NCBI RefSeq assembly: GCF_001677475.2 | Contig: NZ_CP015229.1 | Reading direction: 5' to 3' (one strand) | DNA: 64,000 bases | Source: Escherichia coli | Lineage (GTDB): Bacteria > Pseudomonadota > Gammaproteobacteria > Enterobacterales > Enterobacteriaceae | In this document: one piece after another, positions 1 to 62,660 of the stretch | Layout of the letters: each line of letters starts with the position of its first letter | How positions within the stretch are numbered: the stretch's first letter is position 1 | Made by a program: the position numbers and the translations under genes | The notes under the pieces: generated by a model | Seen by the model: only the letters and a program-made list of their open reading frames with translations | What the model was told of the DNA's origin: nothing | Database searches by the model: none

Positions 1-854
1 ATCATCGCCAAGGTCAAGATGGGTTGCCCCAGTTTTTCCCACAGTGCAAGGCGGTATTCGCTGCTGGGTTGCCCGGTTTCCTGCAAATAATGGATGTAAT
101 GATTAAGCTGACGGACAGAAAAAGTATTCCCCGGCATCGATAACTCTTCAAGATTCATACTGGTGAAGGCCGATTGGCAGGCAAGATTATCTAATGTTTC
201 CAGCGTTTCTTTGCCATTCAGCCATTTTTTATGATTCACACCATGCAGGATCCACGTTTTGTCGTCTTCAATGGTGGCACTGCGTGCATAAATGTAGGAT
301 TCGAGCGAAAGATCGTCACGATAATGAAAAATCTCCACGCCCACCGGCTGGCCCTGCTCGTTCAGCGATTTCACCGTCACAAATTCATTACCACGCCTGG
401 CCCACAGCATATTGCCGGTAATGTCATCGTCCTCCCCCAACGCAGTGGCGGTCGATTTGATTTGCAGCGCCTGTTGCTGCAATGGCGACGCCACCCACTC
501 ATCTATTGCGCCTAACGAAACAGTCCACAATATCCCAGCAACCAGCGCCACCAGTGCAATACGGAAGATAGAAAACCCAGTGCTGCGAATGGCGGTAAGC
601 TCACTGTTTTTCGATAACTGCCCCAGGCCGACAATCCCTCCCAATAAGGCGATAAACGGCGAAAGTTCGACCAGTGTGCGCGGTAAGGTCATCAGCACCA
701 CCAGCACCGCCTGAGTCCAGCGATAACCGCCCGGGCTGACATCATCCAGTTCGTTAATCAGGTTGAAGGTGGTAAAAAGCGGCAGCAATAGCCCTGCGGC
801 GGCGGCAAAACCGAGAAAGAGATGACGGATCAAATAGCGACTGAAAACATTCAT
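1..854 (-). CDS. LptG/YjgQ-family permease paralog, partial (C-terminus beyond window start)
   Basis: Hand translation of the minus strand from ATG at 854 gives MNVFSRYLIRHLFLGF... with a hydrophobic N-terminus, a conserved SELTAIRSTG segment and a long periplasmic-type middle region, open to position 1. Start overlaps the upstream stop as ATGA. Not in the ORF track because it runs off the window. Confidence 0.7.
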   Translation of the reverse strand, partial: MNVFSRYLIRHLFLGFAAAAGLLLPLFTTFNLINELDDVSPGGYRWTQAVLVVLMTLPRTLVELSPFIALLGGIVGLGQLSKNSELTAIRSTGFSIFRIALVALVAGILWTVSLGAIDEWVASPLQQQALQIKSTATALGEDDDITGNMLWARRGNEFVTVKSLNEQGQPVGVEIFHYRDDLSLESYIYARSATIEDDKTWILHGVNHKKWLNGKETLETLDNLACQSAFTSMNLEELSMPGNTFSVRQLNHYIHYLQETGQPSSEYRLALWEKLGQPILTLAM

Positions 855-1921
855 CGGGAAAATTTCTGCAGCAAAGAGAAGTCGCGTGCGACCAGCATCA
901 GCAGGCCCATTAGCATGAGTCCGGGCACTAACCACAAACCAGGAATGAGAGGAATCGCGCCGTTAGCCACCAGCGTACGGCAGACGTCGCCGCCATAAAA
1001 AATGGCAATAAACAGCAACGTCAGTGGCAATAACGTTGAAAATCGCCCCTGCCGCGGTTTTACCCGACTTAATGAAATGGCCAGCAGCGCCATCAACAAT
1101 GCTGTCAGGCCACGGCTTTGTCGCCATTGCAGTTCGGCATGATCGGCTGGAAAGACGGAGCGCGCCAGCTCCGTGACCGATTTTGCTTTGCGTTTGACGT
1201 TAGGGCTTTGATCCAGCGGATTCAGATGTAATTGCAGATTACGGTAGATCTGTTCGTTGTCGTCACGCCCCTGATGATCGAGAAGGTAGGCGGTCCCGTT
1301 ATGCAACATAACGGTCGGTTTCTCGGGTGATGGGTCAACCACATCAACCGAACGGGCGCGGAAAATGCGGGTTCGATTGGCAGTAGAAGTATAAATCAGC
1401 GCGTCAGTCAGGCGATTATTATCCTGATCAACCGTCTGCGAAAGGATCATTCGTCCGTTATCGTTAGTGTTAAATTTCTTTGCCCGCAACTGGCGAACAT
1501 CCAACTCCGACTGCGACTGTTGCTCCAGTTGATAAATCTGCGCATAAGCCCACGGACGACCATACATCGACAGAAGGGTGACAAAAATACTTAGCGGTAT
1601 CGCCAAATTAAGAACGGCTTTGTACAAGCGTCCCGGACTGCCCCCCGCCGCAGAGATAGCGGTAATTTCCGAGTCGGTATACATCTGCCCTAGCGTCACG
1701 CCAACTGACACATACAGTCCAACAGGTAACAACATCTCCAGTGCAATCAGCACTTTGTAGAAAACGATATCCAGCACAACATCAAGTGCTAATGTCCCAT
1801 TTGCCGCTTCGGTCAGATAACGCTGTGCGGAGTAGCTGGCGAAAATAAAGATCAGAAAACCGACGATAATCAGCACCAGACGGCGCGTACCACGCATGAT
1901 GTAGTGTTCAACCAGCTTCAT
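851..1921 (-). CDS. LptF/YjgP-family permease paralog (356 aa)
   Basis: ORF track 851..1921. The N-terminal TM region and the GQMYTDSEITAISAAG motif resemble LptF (GKLYTESEITVMHACG), followed by a ~150-aa hydrophilic insert and C-terminal TM helices. Start may instead be Met9. Confidence 0.75.
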   Translation of the reverse strand: MKLVEHYIMRGTRRLVLIIVGFLIFIFASYSAQRYLTEAANGTLALDVVLDIVFYKVLIALEMLLPVGLYVSVGVTLGQMYTDSEITAISAAGGSPGRLYKAVLNLAIPLSIFVTLLSMYGRPWAYAQIYQLEQQSQSELDVRQLRAKKFNTNDNGRMILSQTVDQDNNRLTDALIYTSTANRTRIFRARSVDVVDPSPEKPTVMLHNGTAYLLDHQGRDDNEQIYRNLQLHLNPLDQSPNVKRKAKSVTELARSVFPADHAELQWRQSRGLTALLMALLAISLSRVKPRQGRFSTLLPLTLLFIAIFYGGDVCRTLVANGAIPLIPGLWLVPGLMLMGLLMLVARDFSLLQKFSR

Positions 1922-1951
1922 CTCACTAACGCCCTCAATCCTTTGAGTTTT

Positions 1952-2515
1952 TTATTCATTGATCAGCTTCTGCGCCAGCGCAATGACATGATCTACCTCT
2001 TCCGGCGTCAGGCTGCCGTCCTTTGCCCACTGAATTTGCCCGGCTTTATTCAGCACCAGAATGGTTGAACTCTGCTCCGGCAAGCGCCAGGCAATGCGTC
2101 CCAGTCCATTGCCGTCAATAACGAATTGCGCCCACGGATAGCGGCGTTTATTTTTTTCGATTTTGCCAACGACAAAATAGCCGGTACCAAAAATGGCATC
2201 ATCGGTGTTCACAATGGTGGTGGGCTGAAAACGATCCTGCGGAAAGTTTGCCGCTTCAACCGCTTTAATTAACAGTGAGTTCTTTTTCTTCGCCGACTTA
2301 CGCCCAGCGATATACTGAATAATGCGAACTTTTCCCGCCAGCTGTGTGCTGTTCCACTTTTGGTAGTGAATTTCGTCGTCGCTATTCAGAAGCAGCTCGC
2401 CGCCTTCCTGGATATAAACAGGGGTAACCGTTTTGCCAGTGACGAAATTGTGTGCCTGCACACCCGGGGCTAAGAGCATGATAATCAGCGCAATAATCAA
2501 ACGAGATGACATCAT
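1952..2515 (-). CDS. YtfJ-family periplasmic protein (187 aa, signal peptide)
   Basis: N-terminal signal sequence MMSSRLIIALIIMLLAPGVQA; overall similarity to E. coli YtfJ from memory (motifs TTIVNTDDAI, QWAKDG.LTPEEV). Confidence 0.65.
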   Translation of the reverse strand: MMSSRLIIALIIMLLAPGVQAHNFVTGKTVTPVYIQEGGELLLNSDDEIHYQKWNSTQLAGKVRIIQYIAGRKSAKKKNSLLIKAVEAANFPQDRFQPTTIVNTDDAIFGTGYFVVGKIEKNKRRYPWAQFVIDGNGLGRIAWRLPEQSSTILVLNKAGQIQWAKDGSLTPEEVDHVIALAQKLINE

Positions 2516-2523
2516 TGCTCCGG

Positions 2524-3348
2524 TTATAGCGGAAAACGCGAAATCAGCAGCTCTAAGCGCTGGCGAATATCGCTATCCAGCGCCACCGGTGCATCATACG
2601 ACTGGCGGTTTTCCATATCATCCGCCACCATGTCGTCGTGTTTATCCCCCATCAGGCCATTAATGGCGGCGAGGAAACGGGAAATCTGTAACGCCTCTTT
2701 ATTTTCAGGATCAAGCGATCTTAGGGTGTCGTAATAAGAAACCTGCTGGCTGATGATTTTTCGCACATCATGAAATTCCCTGCCGGTTAGTCGCGGTTTG
2801 GCGATTATCTCTTTCAGGGTATGCATTTGCTTTTGCCGATAGGCAATAAAACCGCTTACGATTTCTAACTGGCTATGGCGTAATGAATAGTTCACCAACG
2901 ACCAGACCGGAGAGCTTAAATAAATTCGTAACAGGTTGCCGTAATACGACACAATATTTTTCTTACCGTTACGAAATCCGTCCTGAAAACGTCCCAGAAA
3001 AACGGTCGTTTTGCCGAATAAAAATCTGGCCTGATGCTTTTTTAAATACAGCCGTTGTGCAAAACGCAGATGCTTGTAGCGCGCTCGCATGTATTTAAAT
3101 TGTTTGCGCTCATCAGCAGTCAGCTCATCGCCTTTGGTCTGTTTGCGAATTAAACGCAGTAACTCCTGGCGATTAACGCCATTGAGCCAGAATTGCAGGC
3201 ATAACGCGTAATTATCATGGATGATTTCGGTGGTACAACTTAGTGCAATAGTCGGCGGCAAACTAACCTGTGCATCAACGACATCATCTTCTTCAATCGC
3301 AACAAATAGACGCTCGCTCGCCTCAAGCGGGAAATATTTTCTCATCAT
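2524..3348 (-). CDS. Hypothetical basic cytoplasmic protein (274 aa), function unknown
   Basis: Uninterrupted ORF; start overlaps the yghQ stop (ATGA); 8 bp before the next gene. No motif I recognise. Confidence 0.6.
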   Translation of the reverse strand: MMRKYFPLEASERLFVAIEEDDVVDAQVSLPPTIALSCTTEIIHDNYALCLQFWLNGVNRQELLRLIRKQTKGDELTADERKQFKYMRARYKHLRFAQRLYLKKHQARFLFGKTTVFLGRFQDGFRNGKKNIVSYYGNLLRIYLSSPVWSLVNYSLRHSQLEIVSGFIAYRQKQMHTLKEIIAKPRLTGREFHDVRKIISQQVSYYDTLRSLDPENKEALQISRFLAAINGLMGDKHDDMVADDMENRQSYDAPVALDSDIRQRLELLISRFPL

Positions 3349-4697
3349 CAGGATTTCTCTCCGGCTGCGTTATAAAGCAAGGAATGGCGCTGAAAAAATG
3401 CCTTTAAGGTTGGAATTAGCGAGAGCGCTACATCCAGACATTGCCCAGCGAAGTAAGCAAATGCAGCCCCCAGCACGCCAAACAGATGACAGAACATGAA
3501 CAGCAATACGATGTAGCCGATTGAGGCGATGGTTTGCGCCACGAGAAAAGCGCGCTGTTTTCCCGCCATCAATAGCAATGACTCCTGCGGGAAGCCCAGC
3601 ATCGAAATCACAATTGCGCCCAGCATCACCTGAATCAGGTCATACGCTTCGAGATACTTAACGCCAAACACCAGCGAAATGAGCGGCTTGCCGACGATCA
3701 ACACCGCGAGCGCCACCAGAATACCGATTCCGCCCGCCAGTAAACCGGACTTCACACCTAACAACCAAGGTCTGGTGGTGCGCGGATCTAAACGCATCAC
3801 CTCTGGGTAAAAACTTTTACCCAGCAAACCCGCTGGCGTTCCGGCGGCGTCGAAGAATGTCATGGCGATTTTAAATAACCCGGCGGCAGCGGGTCCTAAC
3901 ACGATCCCCACCAACACTGTGCTGCACGAATTACGCGCCGACCAGATGGAATGGGCAATGTTGGTTGACCAGACAAAACTCCACGAGCCTTTGATGTGTC
4001 GGGCAGACTCAAACAGATTCAATTTGAACGCGTTATGGACATTTCTGCGGCGTAATTCACGTGCGGCAAACCACCAGTACATGGTACCGCCAACAAGATT
4101 CGAGGCGTACCAGGCAATAACAAAACCCGCAAAACCAAAGTCAAAATACCAGGCAACGACGCTCCCCGCTGCACGCAGAAAAGGTTTCGTCGCCTGCTGT
4201 ACAGCAATTAAATCGAAGCGATCTACCGCACGCAGAATGCCGGTCGGCGTGGAGGAAGCCATTGAAGGAATGAGCGTGCAATAGAGCGCTGCCAGCCAAA
4301 AACTTTGGTCATCCAGACCTAATGAATGGGAAAGGAATGGCAGTAAGGCAATGCCGCCGACAATCGCCACCGCGCCGCTGACGATATCCAGCGAGAAGGA
4401 AAAAGAGACGACATTGCGAAATTGCTGCGGATTATTGTTGGTTAATGCTGGTGTTCCGTACTGAACCACCAGCTGCCATGTCTGAAACTTAATAAAATCG
4501 CTGATCGACTTGGCGTACGATTGCACAATCACCAGTACGCCAAACATGGCGGGCGTCATCCCTTTACCGGCACACGAGAGCGCCAACAGACCCAGCAAGG
4601 CGCTCACGACATTACTGGAGCCTAACCAGGCGCTATTGCGAATAATGGTGCGAAACGCGCCATCTGCAAACCAATGTTTGATGTTAAAACCCGCCAA
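3348..4697 (-). CDS. yghQ: Putative MOP/Wzx-type polysaccharide or lipid flippase, full-length 449 aa
   Basis: Polytopic membrane protein of the polysaccharide-biosynthesis (flippase) family; position immediately downstream of yghR as in K-12, where I recall YghQ as a shorter 355-aa product. Confidence 0.8.
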   Translation of the reverse strand: MAGFNIKHWFADGAFRTIIRNSAWLGSSNVVSALLGLLALSCAGKGMTPAMFGVLVIVQSYAKSISDFIKFQTWQLVVQYGTPALTNNNPQQFRNVVSFSFSLDIVSGAVAIVGGIALLPFLSHSLGLDDQSFWLAALYCTLIPSMASSTPTGILRAVDRFDLIAVQQATKPFLRAAGSVVAWYFDFGFAGFVIAWYASNLVGGTMYWWFAARELRRRNVHNAFKLNLFESARHIKGSWSFVWSTNIAHSIWSARNSCSTVLVGIVLGPAAAGLFKIAMTFFDAAGTPAGLLGKSFYPEVMRLDPRTTRPWLLGVKSGLLAGGIGILVALAVLIVGKPLISLVFGVKYLEAYDLIQVMLGAIVISMLGFPQESLLLMAGKQRAFLVAQTIASIGYIVLLFMFCHLFGVLGAAFAYFAGQCLDVALSLIPTLKAFFQRHSLLYNAAGEKS

Positions 4698-4741
4698 TTC
4701 AGCCTGAACTTATCGTTGATAGTAAAAAGTATCCGCCAGCC

Positions 4742-5500
4742 TTAAGTTAAACTTCGGCGGTCAGAAACGATGGCAACCAGAGAAACCGCCTTCTGTGCCT
4801 GTTCCAGCACTTCGCTGTAGGGCGCTCTGGAATCAATCTCAAGAATTTTTGTGCCGTTATAGCCAATCGTCGACATGACGCCGATTTTGTCCTGCAGCTC
4901 GGCATAGTCATGGTCAGGCTTGCGGGAGATGGCAGTATCAATATCAATCCCCAAACGAATGATTAATTCAGGACGGTATTGCGCCATTTGTTGGTATAAA
5001 CGCCGTTCGCGCTGCGCCAGAAACATGCTGATTTTCCCGGTCGCACGTTCGACGCCGATCCCCGGTCCGTCATAATAAAAGCCCGAAATTTCAGCCTGCG
5101 GGAAGCGATCGCTGACCACCAGAACGCCACTTTGCGCCAGTCGCTGAACCTTGCGTAGATTCGCCATTCTTCGCAGCGAGAAGCAGTACATAATCACCGC
5201 CGCCCATAGCGCTGGAGATTTGGTTTTCATGCTTTGGGTTTTCGAGGATTTGGCCGCCAGTCGCCGTTCGAGCCAGACGCCAACCAACGGCAATCGTTTG
5301 ATTTTGTCGCCGTCTTCGCCGGAGAGCAGCCCCAGATAGCGGCGCTCAGTTTGCCAGTGTTGTTGCAGCGATTTCACCAGGTCAGTGGTCAGTGTGGATT
5401 TACCGGTGCCATCACACCCGACCACCGCAATCAGCCCCGGAATGTAGTTGGGCTGCGGCGCGGTTGTACTATTAACAGTTTGTGTTTGTAGTGCATCCAT
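4742..5500 (-). CDS. yghR: P-loop NTPase / kinase-like ATP-binding protein (252 aa)
   Basis: Walker A VVGCDGTGKST, DRFPQ and ARKPDH motifs; length and position match K-12 yghR. Confidence 0.85.
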   Translation of the reverse strand: MDALQTQTVNSTTAPQPNYIPGLIAVVGCDGTGKSTLTTDLVKSLQQHWQTERRYLGLLSGEDGDKIKRLPLVGVWLERRLAAKSSKTQSMKTKSPALWAAVIMYCFSLRRMANLRKVQRLAQSGVLVVSDRFPQAEISGFYYDGPGIGVERATGKISMFLAQRERRLYQQMAQYRPELIIRLGIDIDTAISRKPDHDYAELQDKIGVMSTIGYNGTKILEIDSRAPYSEVLEQAQKAVSLVAIVSDRRSLT

Positions 5501-5529
5501 TCGTTAAATCATCCCTATCCATTTGGTGA

Positions 5530-6243
5530 TCAGGAAAGCGCGGCGTGAATTGCGCGTAGTGACGCTTGCAGAATTTCATCGGCTGGTTGCCGACCATCCA
5601 GTTCAAGGATCTTTGCGCCATTGAATGTCAGTTGCGGCGTAACGGCGATTTTTTCCTGTAACGCTGCCAGTTGGTGGTCAGGTTTACGCGCAAACGCGGT
5701 TTGTTCATCAATGCCAAGACGAATCAACAATACGGGCAAATAAGACGCCATCCATTGGTACAGCTTCAGCTCGCGCTGCCTTAACATTTTTATCCAACCG
5801 TTACCGCCCGTAGTTTTTGCCAATTGCGGGCCATCAAAGCGAAAACCCGGCACTTCAACCTGCGGGTAGCGGTCGGTGATGAGCAGATAGCCTTGCTGGC
5901 TTTTACACAACATTTTGCGAAACTTGTACGCCCGCCAGCAGGAAAGCAGATAGATAACCAGTGCAGTAATATTGCCAGGCGGTGTTGAGGGCTTTTCGTG
6001 CACATGTGCCGCTTTACTTCGCAGATAACGCCCAAAAGATGCGCCAATAATGGGCAGCTGTGAAATCCATTCGCCAATTCGCCCGGACGATTGCCCGAGA
6101 TAAATGTGTTCTGTTGGCATTCTTGCTGCCAGTTCATTTACCAGGCTTGCCGTGAGGGTCGATTTACCTGAACCATCACATCCTACAATGGCAATAACAC
6201 GCACTGGCGTGGAATTAATTATTGACATATTACGTTGATTCAC
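5530..6243 (-). CDS. yghS: P-loop NTPase / kinase-like ATP-binding protein (237 aa)
   Basis: Walker A IVGCDGSGKST, DRYPQ and ARKPDH motifs; paralog of yghR. Confidence 0.85.
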   Translation of the reverse strand: MNQRNMSIINSTPVRVIAIVGCDGSGKSTLTASLVNELAARMPTEHIYLGQSSGRIGEWISQLPIIGASFGRYLRSKAAHVHEKPSTPPGNITALVIYLLSCWRAYKFRKMLCKSQQGYLLITDRYPQVEVPGFRFDGPQLAKTTGGNGWIKMLRQRELKLYQWMASYLPVLLIRLGIDEQTAFARKPDHQLAALQEKIAVTPQLTFNGAKILELDGRQPADEILQASLRAIHAALS

Positions 6244-6416
6244 GAAAAACCCGGCAGCAAATAATGTATTGAATATTACGTGGTCCGTGCTCAGAATATC
6301 CGTTCAACCTTATTGTGACAATGGTTAATTGTGACATTGACCTGAATTACGCTTTCATAAAAACATATTAACCAAATAAATATTTTTAATGGATATTTAA
6401 ATTAAAGGATATATTC
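6244..6416. promoter_or_regulatory. Divergent yghS / yghT promoter region with direct repeat of ATTGTGACA
   Basis: AT-rich 173 bp between divergent starts; (t/a)ATTGTGACA at 6311-6320 and 6327-6336. Confidence 0.4.
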
Positions 6417-7109
6417 ATGCAGTCAATAACACCTCCATTAATTGCCGTTATTGGTAGCGATGGTTCAGGCAAGTCAACGGTGTGTGAACATCTCATTACC
6501 GTTGTCGAAAAATATGGTGCTGCCGAAAGAGTTCATTTAGGAAAACAGGCCGGAAATGTCGGTCGTGCAGTGACAAAATTACCGTTGATGGGAAAATCCT
6601 TACATAAAACAATTGAACGAAATCAGGTGAAAACAGCAAAAAAATTGCCTGGCCCTGTTCCGGCGCTGGTAATTACAGCGTTTGTCGCCCGTCGCTTACT
6701 GCGCTTTCGTCATATGCTTGCCTGTCGTCGTCGCGGGTTAATTGTTCTAACCGACCGTTATCCTCAGGACCAAATTCCTGGCGCTTACGATGGTACGGTG
6801 TTCCCACCTAACGTTGAAGGTGGTCGTTTTGTCTCATGGCTGGCAAGCCAGGAACGTAAAGCGTTTCACTGGATGGCGAGCCATAAACCTGATCTGGTCA
6901 TCAAACTCAATGTCGACCTTGAAGTTGCCTGCGCGCGTAAACCCGACCATAAACGGGAATCGCTGGCGAGGAAGATTGCCATAACGCCACAGTTAACCTT
7001 TGGTGGTGCACAACTGGTTGATATCGACGCCAATCAGCCACTGGAAAAGGTGCTGGTTGATGCAGAAAAAGCGATTACGGATTTTATGATCGCGCGTGGT
7101 TATCACTAG
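6417..7109 (+). CDS. yghT: P-loop NTPase / kinase-like ATP-binding protein (230 aa)
   Basis: Walker [17 protein letters not shown] and ARKPDH motifs; third paralog, divergently transcribed. Confidence 0.85.
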
Positions 7110-11904: not shown

Positions 11905-11990
11905 ATCCAGGCCGTATAAGACGTTCACGCCGCATCCGGCAATCGAGCACAAGCCTGATGCGACGCTGCCGCGTCTTATCAGGCCTACGA
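11905..11990. repeat. BIME: two REP (repetitive extragenic palindromic) units in inverted orientation
   Basis: gccgtataagacgttcacgccgcatccggc and gcctgatgcgacgctgccgcgtcttatcaggcctacg match the E. coli REP consensus. Confidence 0.8.
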
Positions 11991-28694: not shown

Positions 28695-28798
28695 GCTTTT
28701 TACGCCTCAAACTTTCGTTTTCGGGCATTTCGTCCAGACTTAAGTTCACTACACCTCACCGGAGCCTGCTCCGGTGAGTTCATATAAAGGAGGAACGT

Positions 28799-62439: not shown

Positions 62440-62660
62440 GGCGGCATATAGCCAAAATAACGTGAGCGGGTCCATGCCCGACAGAATCGTTACTCTCTCC
62501 CATCCGGACTCTAACCGTCGGCCCCGGAATTACACCGGATCTGCTGTCCTTTGAGTTCGCACCCAAAGCGCTCGCGGGCTTTCAACTGAGTTGATTTACC
62601 GCCGGTGGGGAATTTCGCCCCGCCCTGAGAATAAGCGGATTCACTATAACGCTAATGATT
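62440..62660 (-). ncRNA. FMN riboswitch (RFN element) in the ribB 5' leader
   Basis: Minus-strand sequence contains the conserved RFN core (...ggcgaaattccccaccggcggtaaatcaactcagttgaaagcccgcgagcgctttgggtgcgaactcaaaggacagcagatccggtgtaattccggggccgacggttagagtccggatgggagagagtaacga). Confidence 0.85.

Follow-up and report, generated by a model that had tools for sequence, protein, structure and literature searches.

The described system closest to the locus reported here is the sphingolipid cluster of Caulobacter crescentus. Extending from CC_1152 to CC_1168, it combines the ceramide-synthesis genes spt, acpR, aasR, cerR and bcerS with the flippase gene CC_1166 and the genes for LptF2, LptG2, LptC2 and CpgABCD, and its product is an anionic phosphosphingolipid that is sent to the outer membrane. 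The locus holds second copies of LptC, LptF and LptG (Olea-Ozuna et al. 2024, PMC11324152), and CC_1166, the predicted sphingolipid flippase, belongs to InterPro family IPR002797 (PMC11324152). Deletion of lptF2, lptG2 or lptC2 is possible only if spt or the ceramide kinase gene cpgB is absent; on purification, LptF2 and LptG2 are recovered together and along with the single LptB, and LptC2 is reported as Caulobacter-specific (Uchendu, Isom and Klein, 10.64898/2026.04.12.717747). Here we describe a related locus in a 64,000-nucleotide stretch of Escherichia coli DNA (contig NZ_CP015229.1 of assembly GCF_001677475.2; hereafter the window), where positions 1-6243 carry an operon of seven genes running from yghS to lptG2. 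Its gene content, the families and folds of its products, its linkage to ceramide-synthesis genes and its loss in strain K-12 were observed directly. We propose, with a probability of about 0.68, that this operon serves to modify, flip and export the lipid, as one half of an Enterobacterales-type sphingolipid (ceramide) locus.

The synthesis half already has a biochemical record. All steps of ceramide synthesis have been shown for Caulobacter and the first step for E. coli. Clustering of all five ceramide genes was noted only in these two organisms (Padilla-Gomez et al. 2022, PMC9386255). In strain BL21 the genes are ECD_02850 (yghO, an acyl-CoA N-acyltransferase/ceramide synthase homolog), ECD_02851 (aasR), ECD_02852 (a reductase), ECD_02853 (acpR) and ECD_02854 (spt), and co-expression of E. 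coli AasR, AcpR and Spt jointly yields 3-oxo-sphinganine (PMC9386255). For the export half, pairs of the LptF2/LptG2 type have been noted in sphingolipid loci of alpha- and gammaproteobacteria, and the UTI89 locus of E. coli is drawn in Fig. 2B of the same preprint as the Caulobacter genetics, with genes coloured as LptF2/LptG2 homologs (10.64898/2026.04.12.717747); experiments on the E. coli transport genes are absent from the searchable literature. The locus as a whole is therefore familiar to sphingolipid specialists, and the Lpt-like pair is a member of a described kind. A first-pass annotation of the window, made from the sequence alone, had called the locus unstudied and had asked whether its genes might belong to an already characterised operon. 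The BL21 biochemistry of Spt, AcpR and AasR and the LptF2/LptG2 preprint contradict the former view, and the Lpt pair answers to the latter; the kinases, the 274-amino-acid protein and the YtfJ-like protein are undescribed and fall outside any such operon. What is new is the core of kinases, CHAD-like protein and flippase, not described before, and its wide distribution.

The genes of the system and its control region are arranged as follows:

5530-6243, minus strand: yghS, 237 amino acids (aa), a P-loop kinase, first gene of the operon
4742-5500, minus strand: yghR, 252 aa, a P-loop kinase of the YghR/YghS/YghT family
3348-4697, minus strand: yghQ, 449 aa, a full-length flippase of the MOP/Polysacc_synt family, with a TTG start as in RefSeq
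2524-3348, minus strand: orf274, 274 aa, predicted soluble, divergent CHAD-domain protein with two helical bundles
1952-2515, minus strand: ytfJ2, 187 aa, predicted periplasmic YtfJ-family protein with a signal-like hydrophobic N-terminal segment
851-1921, minus strand: lptF2, 356 aa, LptF paralog, putative permease/extractor subunit
1-854, minus strand: lptG2, LptG paralog with its ATG at 854; 284 of 359 codons are present and the window edge cuts the rest
6244-6416, no strand: control region between yghS and yghT, 173 base pairs (bp), AT-rich and divergent, with a candidate sigma-70-like site
6417-7109, plus strand: yghT, a third paralogous P-loop kinase, divergent from the operon

All seven packed minus-strand open reading frames (ORFs) that the first-pass annotation had placed in 1-6243 were found there. 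The gaps it gave between operon genes (29, 44, 8 and 30 bp) and the ATGA overlap of lptF2 and lptG2 are correct; the yghQ/orf274 junction, which it also read as ATGA, is TGATG, a 1-nucleotide overlap. Inside the operon there is no G+C-rich hairpin followed by a T tract comparable to the one that ends yghT (7148-7120). Because the genes either overlap or lie at most 44 bp apart, with no strong internal terminator and with a hairpin after lptG2, the seven would be co-transcribed, as had been proposed; this judgement is one of spacing. Since yghT is a paralog of yghR and yghS and travels with them in other genera, we count it as part of the system, which thus comprises at least eight genes here.

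Linkage to the ceramide-synthesis genes supports our interpretation. Left of the window, as seen in strain A10, the stop of the lptG paralog lies 34 bp from a convergent serine palmitoyltransferase gene. Upstream of the latter, on its own strand, lie genes for an acyl carrier protein, an NAD-dependent epimerase/dehydratase-family protein and a fatty acyl-AMP ligase, and then yghO, whose presence in this direction had been anticipated, and glcC. These RefSeq-labelled neighbours are the acpR, cerR (epi), aasR, spt and aca/bCerS (yghO) genes of BL21. The 34-bp spacer between spt and lptG2 (locus L001, 8741-8774) is a perfect GC-rich hairpin, GCCCGCTGTGGCGC/GCGCCACGGCGGGT, likely a bidirectional terminator common to both operons. 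The first-pass annotation had supposed that the operon runs off the window and that an ATP-binding cassette (ABC) ATPase partner might lie beyond position 1. What lies beyond is the last 75 codons of lptG2: the A10 annotation holds no ABC ATPase or further operon gene past it, and because the hairpin spacer leads directly to the convergent spt, the operon ends with lptG2, without an ATPase gene. Since aasR-cerR-acpR-spt and yghO invariably accompany the operon, its cargo is most likely a ceramide-based lipid rather than a glycolipid or polysaccharide. What is thereby retained of the earlier proposal is lipid export in the envelope through a flippase and an Lpt-like extractor, together with cytoplasmic kinase-like proteins, but with a different cargo.

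To follow this linkage across species, we scanned one genome per species with an alignment of 18 closer CHAD-like sequences, which returned 79 loci, and mapped 13 E. coli proteins onto these by tblastn. All 13 genes are present in the 44 Enterobacterales loci wherever the contig allows (spt in 39, lptF2 in 40, lptG2 in 42 and ytfJ2 in 44), in genera that include Escherichia, Pseudocitrobacter, Hafnia, Sodalis, Pantoea, Serratia, Erwinia, Citrobacter, Mangrovibacter, Tatumella, Cedecea, Rosenbergiella and Rahnella. They occur in at least four macro-arrangements of stable blocks: yghT and yghS-yghR in divergent orientation, yghQ-CHAD-ytfJ2, lptF2-lptG2, aasR-cerR-acpR-spt, and yghO. Two of these contexts, in Serratia and Sodalis, are also visible in precomputed Pfam labels. 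Among the genes mapped in the conserved Enterobacterales block there is no glycosyltransferase, polymerase or sugar-nucleotide gene, neighbours outside the block not having been systematically annotated. In the five Rhodanobacteraceae loci, yghT, yghS and yghR are followed by aasR-cerR-acpR-spt and then by yghQ-CHAD, all on one strand and without lpt or ytfJ genes in the flank. The core of kinases, yghQ and CHAD extends to two further groups of sphingolipid producers, where it is not adjacent to spt. Kinases occur in 18 of the 20 Sphingomonadales loci (two or more in 16), followed by yghQ-CHAD and often beside a two-component system, and five of the seven Acetobacteraceae loci have the CHAD gene, kinases and a more distant flippase. 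Gluconobacter oxydans and Sphingomonas have spt genes (PMC9386255). The distribution suggests a conserved core of kinases, flippase and CHAD protein, to which the Lpt pair and the YtfJ-like protein would be an Enterobacterales addition. Separately, an OmpR-type response regulator and a sensor histidine kinase adjoin the module in Sphingomonadales and Carnimonas (L059, 4912-7025; L064, 4796-6834; L075, 4807-6848; L057, 11172-13136), which hints at dedicated regulation.

The family assignments of the putative export proteins, proposed earlier, were confirmed with hidden Markov models. LptF2 scores 316 bits against TIGR04407 (cut-off 230), LptG2 303 bits against TIGR04408 (cut-off 240; full-length ortholog in L001) and the YtfJ-like protein 213 bits against TIGR01626 (cut-off 151); Pfam PF03739 is precomputed on the Serratia and Sodalis orthologs of the pair, and PF09695 on those of the YtfJ-like protein. 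Over its full length LptF2 aligns to solved LptF chains with 114 bits for Pseudomonas and about 92 bits for E. coli/Shigella, and the pair consists of old, distant paralogs of canonical LptF and LptG. LptF2 has six transmembrane-like segments. Its coupling helix, TDSEITAI, aligns with TESEITVM of LptF, with SEIT conserved, and LptG2 keeps the motif NSELTAI; this helix is the sole segment in which LptF2 and LptG2 resemble each other by BLASTP. Both retain the LptB-docking helix with its Glu. In A10 and in 39-42 of the 44 Enterobacterales loci the pair is encoded with ceramide-synthesis genes and without an lptB of its own. The YtfJ-like protein, whose N-terminus is hydrophobic and signal-like, has the same distribution as the pair: all 44 Enterobacterales loci have its gene, and the 35 loci from other groups all lack it.

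The kinases form a family of their own. YghR is 44% identical to YghS and 34% to YghT, YghS and YghT are 37% identical, and all three share the motifs GxDGSGKST, DRYPQ and RKPDH. Scores against the thymidylate (dTMP) kinase model TIGR00041 (24.7 bits for YghS, 30.9 for YghR and 25.6 for YghT) lie well below its cut-off of 83.25, and Pfam searches across 30 family members gave P-loop-level and weak Thymidylate_kin matches. The AlphaFold 2 model of YghS (mean predicted local distance difference test score, pLDDT, 79.5) is poorly defined in an insert (about residues 50-90) that occupies the position of the acceptor site. It is closest to dTMP and deoxynucleoside kinases (TM-score 0.53-0.57, identity 15-20%), and the family profile finds the same kinases in the PDB at E ~1e-5. 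YghR, YghS and YghT are thus paralogous kinases with a dTMP-kinase fold, but not dTMP kinases by the curated cut-off. In dTMP kinases the DRY-type motif holds the acceptor phosphate, and because of this use of the motif a phosphate-on-phosphate step by the three proteins is plausible. We also considered them as CpgB homologs and rejected this: CpgB is of the LCB5/diacylglycerol (DAG)-kinase family, and the three P-loop proteins have no DAGK match. A role in anti-phage defence was excluded with PADLOC, in which the kinases gave only P-loop-length matches at E>1e-4 and the other proteins none.

Among the 13 conserved genes, only those for the three kinases and the five ceramide-synthesis proteins encode an enzyme-like fold, and none of the products is a glycosyltransferase, a CDP-alcohol transferase or a nucleotidyltransferase. 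Because the kinases are the sole other enzyme-like products and head-group transferases are missing from the 13, we infer that the simplest product is a ceramide carrying one or more phosphates.

The flippase is complete, as had been proposed: YghQ has 449 aa and multiple hydrophobic segments, matches Pfam PF01943 (Polysacc_synt, 9.5e-9) and PF13440 (2.1e-7), and belongs to IPR002797, the InterPro family of Caulobacter CC_1166. It passes no NCBIfam equivalog cut-off (best 34.8 bits against 273), and so cannot be placed in a named subfamily. In 64 of 69 loci yghQ lies directly upstream of the CHAD gene, its stop falling within -40 to +8 nucleotides of the CHAD start. Apparent flippase-CHAD fusion proteins in two Sphingomonadales loci were rejected, as the reading frames show a stop before every CHAD gene.

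The protein encoded by orf274 in E. coli has no NCBIfam, Pfam or direct PDB match, and its family had to be established from its relatives, which a library-wide search found in 203 clusters, with identities down to about 21%. An alignment of 63 sequences shows invariant R88, D123, H193, R196 and D238, and the E. coli protein keeps the basic signature residues R88, K92, R95, H193, R196 and K197. The best PDB match of the family profile is the CHAD domain 6qv5 (E=0.0056), to which both signature helices align. When the 63 members were searched singly with Pfam CHAD (PF05235), 15 matched at E<=0.1 and one at E<=0.001, the best at 2.5e-5. The AlphaFold model has a pLDDT of 97; in a Foldseek search with it the E-values were not significant, and 6qv5 gave the best TM-score. 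There is no hydrophobic segment. Profile and model together point to a divergent, soluble CHAD domain with a two-helical-bundle fold.

Some relatives show other arrangements of the domain. Two distant, metagenome-derived proteins of about 980 aa (L007, 10001-12931; L088, 1082-4033) carry an APH/choline-kinase-like domain together with CHAD-like repeats, a make-up visible in precomputed Pfam and for which NCBIfam gave nothing; such fusions hint that the CHAD-like domain works with a kinase. In Luteibacter two tandem CHAD-like copies follow yghQ, and in a gammaproteobacterial metagenome-assembled genome two copies are interleaved with kinase genes (L046, 10001-11760; L052, 9152-10816; L082, 5501-8678). 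No paper linking CHAD domains or thymidylate-kinase-like proteins to sphingolipids was found in the searchable literature.

On the supposition that E. coli makes the lipid at all, we infer the following order of steps, together with the substrate of the kinases and the parts played by the CHAD-like and YtfJ-like proteins. (Dihydro)ceramide would be produced at the cytoplasmic side of the inner membrane by the proteins that aasR, cerR, acpR, spt and yghO encode. YghS, YghR and YghT would then phosphorylate the ceramide head group, or a phosphate already there, to give an anionic sphingolipid. The CHAD-like protein may bind the phosphorylated head group, or a phosphate/polyphosphate donor, at the cytoplasmic face; that it would act with YghQ is proposed because its gene is strictly coupled to the flippase gene. 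YghQ would flip the lipid to the periplasmic leaflet. From there its removal from the inner membrane would fall to LptF2/LptG2, with energy supplied by the housekeeping LptB, and the Lpt bridge would take it on to the outer membrane. The YtfJ-like protein, a putative periplasmic accessory factor, would assist LptF2/LptG2, since it is found only where they occur. The specific roles given here to the kinases and the CHAD protein are tentative, and we would not be surprised to see them replaced. About as tentative is the idea that a core of two or three P-loop kinases, a CHAD-like phosphate- or polyphosphate-binding protein and a MOP flippase builds and flips an anionic sphingolipid not seen before, a ceramide with a di-, oligo- or multi-phosphate head group; it is similarly doubtful that in Enterobacterales an LptB2F2G2 complex and the YtfJ-like factor place such a lipid in the outer membrane beside lipopolysaccharide (LPS). 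If true, ceramide would be phosphorylated here by a system with no relation to CpgB, and a CHAD domain would for the first time have a role in a lipid pathway.

Within E. coli the locus is common and has been lost repeatedly. Of 5426 complete genomes, 4095 contain the whole 6.3 kb at 96-98% identity and 4703 contain at least part of it; together with the occurrence of the gene set across 44 Enterobacterales species, this excludes a chance run of ORFs. In the 21 full-coverage records that were listed, the locus genes carry coding-sequence annotation. About 13% of the complete genomes have no match, and others have partial deletions. In a K-12-like genome the match to the window begins at position 3629, and an IS5 transposase gene separates yghO from a yghQ of 355 codons that is marked 'missing C-terminus', in agreement with the first-pass annotation; half of the locus was thus lost in K-12 through IS5. 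Papers on yghQ, yghR and yghS from K-12 (chlorhexidine adaptation, silkworm virulence screens) concern this truncated remnant and offer no functional lead. A mastitis strain matches only from window position 2196 on and is thus without lptF2 and lptG2, and some genomes match only the last 51 bp, the entire operon being gone. Loss has therefore occurred more than once. The best identity to the window (1-31000 compared) among the 5426 genomes is about 98.2-98.3%, for the locus and for flanking core genes (pitB, gss, hyb, metC) alike, and the probable source of the window is an Escherichia lineage that is not among the well-sampled groups of E. coli. In the Escherichia loci L009-L012 the CHAD-like and YtfJ-like proteins are 86-95% identical, against 96-98% for yghR, yghQ, spt and acpR products, which suggests faster evolution or allelic exchange of orf274 and ytfJ2 (window 1952-3348).

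A number of points weigh against the sphingolipid interpretation. The bacterial ceramide kinase that has been characterised, CpgB, is of the LCB5/DAG-kinase type (PMC10331486), and YghR, YghS and YghT are tied to a lipid solely by their gene context. The orf274 product was assigned to CHAD on structural grounds, with no significant Pfam match for the E. coli protein itself. The likely orthology of the E. coli pair to Caulobacter LptF2/LptG2, as opposed to a parallel duplication, is argued from a preprint figure and from context. In Sphingomonadales the core is not beside spt and no such phosphorylated ceramide is known, so that its substrate there could be another lipid. Finally, BL21, which carries the locus, showed no 3-oxo-sphinganine on thin-layer chromatography (TLC) with empty vectors (PMC9386255), because of which the locus may be silent or conditional in the laboratory; and our search of the literature found no report of a sphingolipid from E. 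coli.

One alternative is that in Escherichia the locus persists as a silent or decaying relic, functionless and with its gene order kept by inertia. The IS5 loss in K-12, the genomes that lack the locus or have it partly deleted, the missing BL21 product and the possible silencing of an AT-rich control region would all fit such decay. Yet the whole locus is retained in the large majority of complete genomes and its genes are intact in the window, and in 44 species from many genera this set of 13 genes has survived several rearrangements, which requires selection; we regard decay as unlikely. A further alternative is a substrate outside sphingolipid metabolism: the core might handle another phosphorylated molecule, polyprenyl-linked or polyphosphate-related for instance, and be merely co-located with sphingolipid genes in some lineages. 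Its distance from spt in Sphingomonadales and Acetobacteraceae would then be expected, CHAD domains are known polyphosphate binders (PDB 6qv5, 6rn5, 5a61), and MOP flippases usually carry polyprenyl-linked molecules. However, every taxon with the core either produces sphingolipids or has spt in the same locus, the core genes of Rhodanobacteraceae flank the spt operon on one strand, and no polyprenyl-phosphate transferase was found among the conserved neighbours, leaving this explanation with little probability.

The two remaining alternatives concern the exporter. The first-pass annotation saw a self-contained exporter of a phosphorylated glycolipid or polysaccharide with its own ABC ATPase, in which yghQ would be a Wzx-type oligosaccharide flippase. 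The presence of the Lpt-like pair and of kinases agrees with this, as does the membership of yghQ in the Polysacc_synt/MOP family, best known for its flippases of undecaprenyl-linked glycans; but no ATPase or operon gene follows lptG2, and in the 44 Enterobacterales loci the invariant neighbours are ceramide-synthesis genes, with no glycan gene mapped in the conserved block. We consider such an exporter very improbable. No more credible is that the permeases are extra LPS exporters, isoforms of LptF and LptG that serve LPS or modified lipid A under some conditions beside unrelated neighbours. Both do score above the LptF/LptG equivalog cut-offs and have conserved coupling helices. Against this, their distance from canonical LptF is large (about 92 bits to the E. 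coli protein over the full length), K-12 exports LPS normally without them, they accompany ytfJ2 and sphingolipid genes in every Enterobacterales locus examined, and Caulobacter genetics links such paralogs to sphingolipid and not to LPS. We therefore keep to the sphingolipid reading of the operon.

The GC content of the locus is about 50%, matching its surroundings, and falls to 0.41 in 6001-6500; an AT-rich control region would fit silencing and may reflect it. A sigma-70-like match, TTGTCA-17-TATTCT, lies at 6321-6293 on the minus strand and is a candidate only, the number of such sites in the region equalling the expectation from shuffled sequences; terminator-like sites in the region are commoner than in shuffles. 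The next genes after yghT are pitB and gss. Elsewhere in the window and unrelated to the locus, Rfam matches above the gathering score are a flavin mononucleotide (FMN) riboswitch at 62488-62636 (minus strand), the ES173 small RNA at 28697-28760 (plus strand) and naRNA4, a nucleoid-associated RNA derived from repetitive extragenic palindromes (REP), at 11910-11985 (plus strand).

E. coli is usually described as sphingolipid-free, a picture drawn from K-12, in which half of the locus was lost to IS5. All genes to make, decorate and export a ceramide to the outer membrane are found in about three quarters of complete E. coli genomes, and the same full set occurs in many Serratia, Pantoea, Erwinia, Citrobacter and Hafnia. 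If it is expressed in a host or in the environment, outer-membrane charge, sensitivity to polymyxin and bile, vesicle formation and host sphingolipid recognition could change. The head-group genes of E. coli, once worked out, would define both a new lipid and a new type of lipid kinase, and this in an organism that is easy to manipulate genetically. Two annotation problems also come to light. The LptF/LptG equivalog models fail to separate the sphingolipid paralogs from LPS exporters, and because the paralogs score above the cut-offs, RefSeq names them 'LPS export ABC transporter permease LptF/LptG' (851-1921; L001, 8775-9854), which is probably misleading. The RefSeq name 'dTMP kinase' for yghS (5530-6243) and yghT (6417-7109) is likewise unsupported and probably misleads.

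Compared with known protein families, several components of the locus combine familiar and divergent traits. LptF2 and LptG2 share with the LptB2FG(C) complex of E. coli the model family, the length, the coupling-helix Glu and the tandem genes with an ATGA overlap; they differ in being distant in sequence, in their linkage to ceramide genes without adjacent lptB or lptC, and in being dispensable in K-12. Like dTMP kinases (Tmk) and deoxynucleoside kinases, which are their best structural matches, YghR, YghS and YghT have a P-loop, a DRY-like DRYPQ motif and an Arg/Lys lid (RKPDH); unlike them, they come as three paralogs per locus, with the insert at about 50-90 and in the context of a lipid, not a nucleotide. 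The described CHAD proteins, such as Ricinus 6qv5, Chlorobium 3e0s, Streptomyces PptA (6rn5) and E. coli YgiF (5a61), are linked to polyphosphate granules, not to lipid pathways. By contrast, the orf274 protein falls below Pfam significance, lacks a fusion to a CYTH triphosphatase and has invariant D123 and D238 beside the basic residues, and its gene always follows a flippase gene.

As a whole, the locus resembles that of Caulobacter in its ceramide-synthesis genes, its Polysacc_synt-family flippase and its LptF/LptG paralogs without an LptB of their own. It departs from it in what decorates and accompanies the lipid: homologs of CpgA, CpgB, CpgC, CpgD and LptC2 are absent from the E. coli locus, as are HIT, phosphoesterase and glycerophosphotransferase genes, and in E. 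coli we find instead three P-loop kinases of dTMP-kinase fold, a CHAD-like protein and a periplasmic YtfJ-family protein. Since the head-group genes differ in this way, the head group made by the E. coli locus must differ from the ceramide diphosphoglycerate of Caulobacter.

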